A stretch of 64,000 bases of DNA, from NCBI GenBank assembly GCA_951406725.2, contig OX597824.1, forward strand, positions 77,438,001 through 77,502,000, in the 5' to 3' direction. The notes under the pieces were generated by a model. That model saw only the letters and a list, made by a program, of their open reading frames with translations, did not search any database and was not told the DNA's origin. This document shows positions 51,336 through 54,301 of the stretch, one piece after another. Within the stretch, counting starts at the first letter, position 1; each line of letters begins with the position of its first letter. A program made the position numbers and the translations under genes. This DNA is from Octopus vulgaris (lineage: Eukaryota).

Positions 51336-52445
51336 TGCGCTATGTATACACACATATATTTAATATTTTTGACTAATGGGTATATGTCACTTAGTGTACT
51401 GAGTGTTGAGTAGAGTATTGACACAGTTTGGGATCCCTGGTGTCATCCGCAGTCAGGTCATATTTCCGTTGGGTCTACTTCAGGAACTCCCCTGTATGTA
51501 TGACTGTATGGATGTACCTGATGAGACCCAGATTGCAAAATGGATGCAGCACAACATGTCGAACGGAGTCTCACTCACAGCACGACGGGTCGTAAAGATT
51601 GTTGTATAAAATAAAGAATAATACCAAATCCATCTTTTTACTTAATTATCATTATATACACATATATACACATATATACACATATATACACATATATATA
51701 TGCATGTATGTATATATGTATATATATGTATAGGTACATATATATATATAAATACATATCTATATACATATATTCATATACATATACACACATACATATA
51801 TATCTATATCTATCTATCTTTGTATATATATATATATATATATATATATAACGGGAAGGTTTACGAAAATAAACAAAAGACGAAGGCAGGTGGAGTACAA
51901 ACAAACAAATGTATTAGTGTGGCGCTCCGGAATATAAATAGAACAAGTCTTTTACGTTTCGAGCCAGAAAGATGCACAGAGAAAAAGCAAGGAAAGAAAC
52001 AAGGAGAGAAAAAATGCGTGTAGGAGCTAACAATATATATATATATATATATATATATATATATATATATATATATATATATATATATATATATATATAT
52101 ATATATATATATATATATATATATATATATATATATATATATATATATATATATATATATATATATATATAAAATATTTAAAAATTGAGGGAGATAAATT
52201 AATATTAATTTTAATATCAATTTAAAACCAGTAGTCCAGCATTCAAAAAATCTGAGGAGTCAGAGAAAATTCAAATATATGTGTATATTGGCAGGGCTGG
52301 CCTGCTAGGTAGCCGGCCAGAATGCTAGAGAAAGATCATCAACGATCAAACTACAAGGGAAATTCTCTAGAGGAAGAATTCAGCGAACACCAGAACCAAA
52401 TTTGGCGGGCAGGACATATGAAAAATTAAATAAAAAACAGACTTA

Positions 52446-52521
52446 AATGCATACCTCGGTTTCGGTCTTAACAAAAGAATTACTTGCATAATTCAAGTGT
52501 CCGTGACTTCTTCAGTACATT
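52446..52521 (-). ncRNA. Type I hammerhead motif, copy 1 of 546-bp array
   Basis: Minus strand: aatgta CTGAAGA agtc...gacc GAAA ccgagg TA tgcatt. Confidence 0.75.
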
Positions 52522-53144
52522 CGGTCCTCGAGATGCAAACCGCAAGACTAACCCCAGCTCTCTGTGTCAAGACAGACACGTGCTTAGTCTTACTGATTAC
52601 ATCGGGAATAAAATTTCAAATGTCTTGGTTCTGGCGCGCTAAGAGACTCCTGAAGCGAAGGGCTGCAGTGAATAATTCACTGCGGGTAATGCTTACAACT
52701 AGGGAACGTATTTATTTAAATATTCAAAAATTGAGGGAGATAAATTAATATTAATTTTAATATCAATTTAAAACCAGTAGTCCAGCATTCAAAAAATCTG
52801 AGGAGTCAGAGAAAATTCAAATATATGTGTATATTGGCAGGGCTGGCCTGCTAGGTAGCCGGCCAGAATGCTAGAGAAAGATCATCAACGATCAAACTAC
52901 AAGGGAAATTCTCTAGAGGAAGAATTCAGCGAACACCAGAAAATATTTAAATAAATACGTTCCCTAGTTGTAAGCATTACCCGCAGTGAATTATTCACTG
53001 CAGCCCTTCGCTTCAGGAGTCTCTTAGCGCGCCAGAACCAAGACATTTGAAATTTTATTCCCGATGTAATCAGTAAGAATAAGCACGTGTCTGTCTTGAC
53101 ACAGAGAGCTGGGGTTAGTCTTTCAGTTTGCATCTCGAGGACCG

Positions 53145-53220
53145 AACGTACTGAAGAAGTCACGGACACTTGAATTATGCAAGTAATTCTTTTGTTAAGA
53201 CCAAAACCGAGGTATGCATT
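53145..53220 (+). ncRNA. Hammerhead motif, copy 2 of 546-bp array (GAAA>AAAA, likely inactive)
   Basis: aacgta CTGAAGA agtc...gacc AAAA ccgagg TA tgcatt. Confidence 0.65.
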
Positions 53221-53690
53221 TAAGTCTGTTTTTTATTTAATTTTTCATATGTCCTGCCCGCCAAATTTGGTTCTGGTGTTCGCTGAATTCTTCCTCTAGA
53301 GAATTTCCCTTGTAGTTTGATCGTTGATGATCTTTCTCTAGCATTCTGGCCGGCTACCTAGCAAGCCAGCCCTGCCAATATACACATATATTTGAATTTT
53401 CTCTGACTCCTCAGATTTTTTGAATGCTGGACTACTGGTTTTAAATTGATATTAAAATTAATATTCATTTATCTCCCTCAATTTTTAAATATTTAAATAA
53501 ATACGTTCCCTAGTTGTAAGCATTACCCGCAGTGAATTATTCACTGCAGCCCTTCGCTTCAGGAGTCTCTTAGCGCGCCAGAACCAAGACATTTGAAATT
53601 TTATTCCCGATGTAATCAGTAAGATTAAGCACGTGTCTGTCTTGACACAGAGAGCTGGGGTTAGTCTTGCGGTTTGCATCTCGAGGACCG

Positions 53691-53766
53691 AACGTACTGA
53701 AGAAGTCACGGACACTTGAATTATGCAAGTAATTCTTTTGTTAAGACCGAAACCGAGGTATGCATT
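53691..53766 (+). ncRNA. Type I hammerhead motif, copy 3 of 546-bp array
   Basis: aacgta CTGAAGA agtc...gacc GAAA ccgagg TA tgcatt, exactly 546 bp after copy 2. Confidence 0.7.
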
Positions 53767-54301
53767 TAAGTCTGTTTTTTATTTAATTTTTCATATGTCC
53801 TGCCCGCCAAATTTGGTTCTGGTGTTCGCTGAATTCTTCCTCTAGAGAATTTCACTTGTAGTTTGATCGTTGATGATCTTTCTCTAGCATTCTGGCCGGC
53901 TACCTAGCAGGCCAGCCCTGCCAATATACCCACACACACACACACACATATATATATATATATATATATATATATATATATATATATATATATATATAAT
54001 ATTTTAGGGAATATTAATCCTAACTTACAGGGAAAAAATTCAATTTAGAAATACTAAATCAAATTTCACACAATATAATATATATATATATATATATATA
54101 TATATATATATATATATATATATATATATATATATATATATATATATATTAGAAAGAACCACCTTTTATCTATTCAAAATAAACAACTGAATTACACCAT
54201 CTAGAAAATTACATATAGAAATATTAAAATTAAAATAACAATAAAATACCAATGATTAAGTAAATTGCAAAAAATAATATAAACGTATATAATTGGTAGA
54301 A

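Follow-up and report, generated by a model that had tools for sequence, protein, structure and literature searches.

The 546-bp element at positions 52172-53932 of the window (the whole 64-kb stretch of Octopus vulgaris DNA that was analysed) is read here as a retrozyme copy that was moved by a Penelope-like element, probably of the Hydra clade, from a template of one unit that was probably a circular RNA; taken as a whole, this reading is moderately favoured. The locus is one copy of a young dispersed 546-bp family, and the evidence comes from the structure of the locus, from the ends and haplotypes of 83 family loci, and from young autonomous elements in the same genome.

Structure of the 546-bp locus and its hammerhead motif

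The positions of the features are listed in Table 1. Direct repeats lie 546 bp apart (52172/52718 and 52941/53487), the inverted arms match at 99% over 553-662 bp, and the monomer, numbered from 52941 in the ribozyme sense, has a G+C content of 38%. The build given in the first-pass annotation, ~1.4 monomer units followed by ~1.8 units in the opposite orientation, was recovered as 1.41 and 1.82 units with the flip at 52941, and the right end was corrected from 53927 to 53932. The two arms overlap by about 1 nt at the junction, and arm B at this locus starts by chance at the A palindrome.

Table 1. Features of the 546-bp locus, in positions of the window
Feature	Position	Strand	
(TA)n target microsatellite, left flank	52033..52171	.	
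Arm A, 770 bp = 1.41 units, monomer 331 -> 546 -> 1 -> 546+8, 3' end outward	52172..52941	-	
Fixed end A, within 14-bp AT palindrome	52172..52182	-	
Hammerhead motif copy 1, intact core, 6-bp helix I, predicted cleavage between 52452 and 52451	52446..52521	-	
Head-to-head junction, arm A inner end (monomer 331) to arm B inner end (monomer 1)	52940..52942	.	
Arm B, 992 bp = 1.82 units, monomer 1 -> 546 -> 1 -> 446, 3' end outward	52941..53932	+	
Monomer 170, hot spot of inner (5') ends, unused as end here; equivalents 52556, 53656	53110..53114	+	
Recurrent GCG>TCA double change (monomer 183, 185), perfects hairpin with CUGA core	53123..53125	+	
Hammerhead motif copy 2, G12A at 53203, helix I mismatch, predicted inactive core	53145..53220	+	
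Hammerhead motif copy 3, intact core, one helix I mismatch, predicted cleavage after 53760	53691..53766	+	
Fixed end B (monomer 446-451), microsatellite-like in itself	53915..53932	+	
(CA)n(TA)n microsatellite, right flank	~53930..54002	.	

An assembly fold-back is largely refuted by the junction itself, which joins monomer 331 to monomer 1 and is not a mirror image, by private substitutions that distinguish the units at the locus and by 60 other loci with a like build and different junctions. In four other runs the 52941 junction is not bridged by any of the listed contigs, which for a single locus is uninformative. The family occurs in sequencing runs labelled as three organisms. None of the runs that contain it is recorded as RNA, and 14 are guessed to be so. 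In four of the runs guessed to be RNA, contigs cover most of the monomer and two contigs span the head-to-tail junction; these contigs show neither ends nor strand and are not counted as evidence.

The monomer had been called non-coding, and this was borne out: the longest stop-free frames are 41 codons in the ribozyme sense and 104 codons in the antisense, and the 104-codon frame drew no match from Pfam and, against 10 autonomous Penelope-like proteins, nothing significant (best E 0.53). The single hammerhead motif in each unit was likewise confirmed and is of type I, with cores beginning at 52515 (-), 53151 (+) and 53697 (+). Each unit carries CUGA(A)GA, GAAA and GUA with a helix I of 6 bp and a helix III of 2-3 bp, and the type I features CUGANGA, GAAA, NUH and three helices are all present in the monomer. 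Together, the non-coding head-to-tail repeats and the single type I motif in each unit support the retrozyme-like nature that had been proposed.

Helix II of this hammerhead is short and irregular, and its pairs get low predicted probability. Rfam matched no hammerhead, either at the gathering score across the 64-kb window or at E<=10 in positions 50500-56500, so the ribozyme call rests on inspection of the motif and its helices. The predicted active fold lies about 6 kcal/mol above the minimum-energy fold, and the sense circle folds better than shuffled sequences (z -3.7; antisense z -2.0). Substitutions in the CUGA-GA core amount to 2/824 against 904/68,058 elsewhere, but lineage markers inflate the background, so that this counts as weak evidence; the sole polymorphic core base among the family units is position 7.

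The GAAA>AAAA change that had been noted in copy 2 was found at 53203, where it corresponds to G12A and is predicted to inactivate the core; G12A removes the general base of the hammerhead. Arm A has one hammerhead and arm B has two, of which one carries G12A, leaving one intact core in that arm. With one arm B ribozyme dead, the locus is an unlikely source of monomers, and the proposed release of a monomer by successive hammerheads is doubtful here, whereas in the family both cores are intact in 19 of the 22 arms that span two ribozymes. By analogy with the dimer model in PMC4209133, the intact core in a double-hammerhead fold could in principle cut the site of the other copy.

Several other repeats were also seen. 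An older related family at 47999-48510, about 80% alike near end A, shows a build of short arm, inversion and second arm, with its own hammerhead at 48273, a covarying helix I and a 29-nt motif that has 333 exact matches in the genome. An element at ~54150-54430 (-) ends in the (TA)n adjoining the 546-bp locus; it carries a different minimal type I hammerhead (core 54401) with a long helix II and a palindromic helix III, and a 136-bp stretch is repeated at 597-bp spacing (78%). The stretch at 51850-52032 (-), between TA repeats, is a fragment that retains the 3' half of a further hammerhead-like motif, and the region around it is a nest of such insertions. Tandem arrays of period 174-186 at 8883-9569, 13393-14242 and 22900-23265 consist of a dispersed repeat that may be an octopus SINE, and a 97-bp satellite is found at 6899-8263 (14 copies, 94% matches). 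A further hammerhead-bearing repeat, at locus L131, has ~499-bp spacing and an inverted copy.

Fixed ends, shared haplotypes and copying signatures in the family

The genome holds 1,301 first-look candidates for the monomer, 40 of which were scored, and 309 exact matches to a 24-nt core, 100 of which were listed. From 90 fetched loci, 7 duplicates were dropped, giving 83 loci (27 from the candidate list and 56 from the exact-core list). An adjoining but distinct piece at L020 was not included. Near-intact ribozyme-bearing copies are favoured by both sources, and neither selects on end type. The family units deviate from the column majority by 1.2%.

Two head-to-head arms with their 3' ends outward were present in 61 of the 83 loci and a single arm in 22. 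The outer ends fall at two fixed sites about 100 nt apart, end A (monomer 546+8 to 17) and end B (monomer 441-461). The 61 inverted loci comprised 47 A/B, 12 A/other, 1 B/other and 1 other/other pairs, and no A/A or B/B pair was observed against 23.5 same-end pairs expected on random pairing (0 of 100,000 permutations were as low); end A lies at exactly one end in 59 of the 61. The present locus is a typical A/B insertion. The inner 5' ends are scattered, mostly with a 0-6 nt overlap where the arms join. The ends of the insertions lie in (TA)n, with microsatellite on both flanks in 60/83 loci and on at least one flank in 82/83. Judged from its ends, the family is without long terminal direct repeats, and no reverse transcriptase or GIY-YIG frame is joined to the 546-bp repeat in the 83 loci; protein-coding fragments near them are separate insertions. 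The fixed 3' ends, 5' truncation, one-end tail and (TA)n target support the Penelope-style origin that had been assigned to the inverted arm.

The mean arm is 535 nt long and 8 of 148 arms exceed two units; arrays of 3-4 units exist, and in L005 the four units of one arm are identical. The first-pass annotation had described permuted copies longer than one unit. Arms that exceed one unit do occur, but the copies are not permuted freely: variation is confined to the inner 5' ends, and the outer 3' ends stay at the two fixed sites. The lengths of the two arms show an anticorrelation (rho -0.31, P 0.02, n 56) that was set aside, because choosing loci with one long arm would be expected to produce it. 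Given a mean below one unit and so few arms beyond two, length must be regenerated in each generation. This is achieved simply by a ribozyme-made circle, and also by redundant linear RNA with strand transfer.

Variant sharing is 72% within an arm, 72% between the two arms of a locus and 17% between loci. At 332 of 338 lineage marker sites the two arms carry the same state, compared with 57% for random pairs, and two of the 6 discordant sites are at L037. Across 11 loci, 15 private variants are fixed over both arms, and the present locus has one of these variants. Sites with at least three overlapping copies hold 84 singletons, 45 fixed and 6 intermediate variants, and 131 private unit-specific differences in the family indicate that the units are not homogenised after insertion. 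Thus each insertion starts from the sequence of one unit, which is copied several times and then gathers scattered mutations. The uniformity of haplotype within loci also supports the earlier suggestion that the template was read round more than once. A one-unit template for both arms is likely; that this template was specifically an RNA circle is favoured with less confidence. Inner ends show no pile-up at the start of the other arm (6/56 against 3.2 and 2/58 against 3.3 expected), so that two primers on one molecule are not evidenced and sibling RNAs from one source fit equally well. A collision of the two primers is not supported either.

The predicted cleavage site was considered as a stop for cDNA synthesis and rejected, with only 2 stops in 152 passes; it is crossed by 117 of 148 arms, 25 of them twice or more, and it holds no inserted bases. 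Inner ends instead have a hot spot at monomer 167-172, with 12 stops in 134 passes (~9%), including 9/107 first passes and 3/20 second passes; the best 5-nt window has P ~5e-9, uncorrected for the 546 windows. The hot spot starts with U and precedes the predicted cleavage site by 105 nt, and no second ribozyme or splice site is evident there by inspection. In view of these stops, some of the templates, at least, may be linear.

The double change at monomer 183 and 185 was found in 16/135 units across lineages and in 12/40 multi-copy loci. It is fixed in 0 of the 12 carrier loci, against 145 of 151 cases for lineage markers, and the reciprocal change in the partner helix at 212 and 214 was seen in 0/138. 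For RNA starting at 170, the double change raises the predicted pair probability of the CUGA hairpin from 0.03 to 0.7-0.9, and the predicted block is absent in the 100-330 folding context. On this suggestive evidence, the change looks like an error that arises often in copying and then fails to be inherited, and the lack of fixation of a variant predicted to block the ribozyme leans toward a working ribozyme, again suggestively. The one-sidedness of the change suggests fold-back template switching during cDNA synthesis, and the change may also be a sequencing artefact.

Autonomous Penelope-like elements, known systems and a candidate mechanism

An endonuclease fragment beside one 546-bp locus led to large autonomous families in the same genome. 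The youngest has a 2,589-bp unit with a 717-aa frame (L141 2735-5837 and further loci), in which RWK, DKT, CxCx5C, CxxC, CxH and a C-terminal endonuclease are present, and its target is (TA)n. Many identical copies exist, with tandems of up to 4 units that alternate between full and shorter open frames. The 20 fetched loci were selected by the length of their frames. Two arms are present in 16, every one of which pairs the two fixed ends of this family, 67 nt apart; a 17th locus carries a 25-nt second arm. The arms share 126/154 variants against 358/6,100 between loci, a count from which two older loci were dropped. The hammerhead-like motif of the family has CCGA instead of CUGA in all 34 copies scored, and the predicted ribozyme site has three inner ends at a distance of 2-6 nt, which is a weak hint. 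Since this family shows the same end-pairing rule and shared arm variants, the footprint is a property of the machinery.

About six further Hydra-like families (L161-L180) have open frames of 720-1,090 codons, one of them with 3,624-bp tandem units, a hammerhead in each and a tail of ~145 nt. Hydra-like frames contain DKT in 10/10 and CxCx5C in 8/10, and PMC8557442 gives RWK/RWR, DKT and CxCx5C as motifs of the Hydra clade. By motif, the co-resident autonomous elements probably belong to that clade, and the first guess, Neptune, was dropped after the motif check against the same text. Pfam assigned no family to the 717-aa and 981-aa frames and gave one sub-threshold unrelated match for a 722-aa frame. 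Across 40 autonomous loci from about seven Hydra-like families, no terminal repeat is significantly like the monomer (for the two best end alignments, 22/300 and 21/300 shuffles were as good), so the partner is proposed on the strength of footprint and target. That Penelope-like machinery moved the 546-bp family is highly probable, and that the mover belonged to the Hydra clade is fairly probable.

In PMC7229834, animal non-LTR retrozymes resemble the family in their head-to-tail repeats without coding capacity, each unit with one type I hammerhead, G+C below 50%, short helix III suited to dimer cleavage and self-paired predicted circle, and a circular template with a Penelope-like helper is proposed for them. 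They are 170-400 nt long against 546 nt here, and their cleavage and circles have been shown, whereas the 546-bp family is known from its sequence; the family occurs as dispersed copies of 0.5-4 units with two head-to-head arms and two fixed ends, neither of which is described in the text consulted. The monomer had been noted as longer than animal non-LTR retrozymes of ~170-400 nt, but it is not exceptional, as its length falls within the 51-972 bp given in 10.64898/2026.07.22.740005. That work treats vertebrate retrozymes, mostly in vertebrate groups, as derivatives of Penelope-like elements, and its families are likewise non-autonomous and co-occur with such elements. The link there is co-occurrence together with terminal-repeat homology in Xenopus, and here it is the integration footprint. 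'Active' as used there denotes two consecutive complete cores, which this locus is without owing to G12A in copy 2.

Penelope-like insertions in PMC8557442 share with the family 5' truncation, partial tandems, a 5'-truncated copy in inverted orientation, a tail that often lies at one end only, a (TA)n target and hammerheads. The family differs in having no reading frame, in the tail of ~100 nt (~67 and ~145 nt in two autonomous families) against 30-40 bp, in a one-end tail that is strict instead of frequent, and in the common haplotype of both arms. For the anole Poseidon element in vitro, PMC11167929 likewise describes two internal start sites downstream of the ribozyme that define the tail, cutting and extension of both DNA strands, an AT-rich target and a predicted dimer. 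In that system the ribozyme is dispensable and the strands show no difference in start site, whereas the two 546-bp arms never start at a common site; the clades differ as well. Minimal hammerheads, in PMC4209133, similarly have an extra base between 9 and 10.1, a possible helix II bulge and a tiny helix III able to pair between copies, and a circular template is proposed there for head-to-tail tandems; unlike them, the motif here has a canonical helix I of 6 bp, only ~3 bp of helix II before an internal loop, and a loop III that departs from a strict palindrome, with tandem G-A in the dimer.

In the candidate mechanism, a source arm spanning two ribozymes would be transcribed, perhaps from monomer 170. 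As in known retrozymes, cleavage by the two hammerheads, which probably act as a dimer, would be followed by closure of the 546-nt monomer by a host ligase. The Penelope-like reverse transcriptase-endonuclease would then cut both strands of the (TA)n target, with one DNA end priming internally at A and the other at B, ~100 nt upstream. This would yield the arms as they are observed, each fixed at its outer end and variable at its inner one, running through the ribozyme site and able to exceed one unit, with one haplotype in all units and both arms of a locus. The two cDNA ends would be joined by microhomology of 0-6 nt. A more specific version, in which insertion is a single concerted event and an asymmetric protein dimer primes both TA ends at two fixed sites on one ribozyme-made circle and rolls around the circle from either end, for autonomous elements and retrozymes alike, is offered only tentatively.

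Alternative explanations and meaning

The same machinery with double priming may have used a linear, terminally redundant transcript, for example one starting at monomer 170, with the reverse transcriptase jumping from the 5' end to the redundant 3' part and the ribozyme as a passenger or acting later. This is unlikely overall and has several observations in its favour: the 5' end hot spot at 170 is sharp and appears in first and second passes, the Poseidon protein in vitro mainly used uncleaved linear RNA (PMC11167929), the 2,589-bp autonomous family still forms multimers with a CCGA core, and the uniformity of haplotypes is accounted for equally well. Jumps between RNAs should, however, mix haplotypes within arms, and mixing is rare; the linear transcript also gives no reason for a hairpin-perfecting variant that is never fixed in its carrier loci, or for the helix I covariation across related families. 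Multi-unit arrays could alternatively be read through linearly, with uniformity arising from young uniform sources together with unequal crossing-over or gene conversion. In favour of this are the arrays of 3-4 units, among them the identical units of L005, and local tandem expansion is the model in 10.64898/2026.07.22.740005. Conversion should leave intermediates, which are few against the fixed and singleton variants counted above, and the private unit differences, the private variants that cross the inversion junction in 11 loci and the fact that read-through alone can only shorten arms also speak against this quite improbable account.

The inversion has further been considered as the product of two independent microsatellite insertions, of LINE-1-type twin priming or of an assembly fold-back, a group that is largely refuted already and has very little probability left. 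TA repeats do attract many elements in this genome, but independent insertions would not yield the absence of same-end pairs in 61 loci, direct joins of the arms and matched haplotypes. Under twin priming the first arm should stop near the second primer site, which is not seen, and a fold-back should give the mirror image that the structure does not have.

Retrozymes, inverted arms and one-sided tails are already known, and the locus is in itself an ordinary, partly dead copy of a known class of element. A literature search at the level of titles and abstract openings, and of the text of the papers cited, with most subscription papers outside its scope, found no cephalopod retrozymes, strict end pairing or arm-shared haplotypes, and the strict pairing and single-template signature were not found described. 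In the cited literature, the movement of animal retrozymes by Penelope-like elements and the templating of head-to-tail copies by circular RNA are still hypotheses. To these, and to the question of how the inverted arm and the one-sided tail come about, the octopus family adds signatures that can be counted, namely strict A/B pairing, one haplotype across the inversion and read-through of the ribozyme site, and they stand beside young intact autonomous elements with the same footprint. A 546-nt RNA, a TA target and a protein of ~710 aa would make a small in vitro system. If the concerted priming on a circle is true, the genome would record the first direct footprint of a retrozyme circle as a template for retrotransposition, and with it selection that removes a ribozyme-blocking error of reverse transcription.
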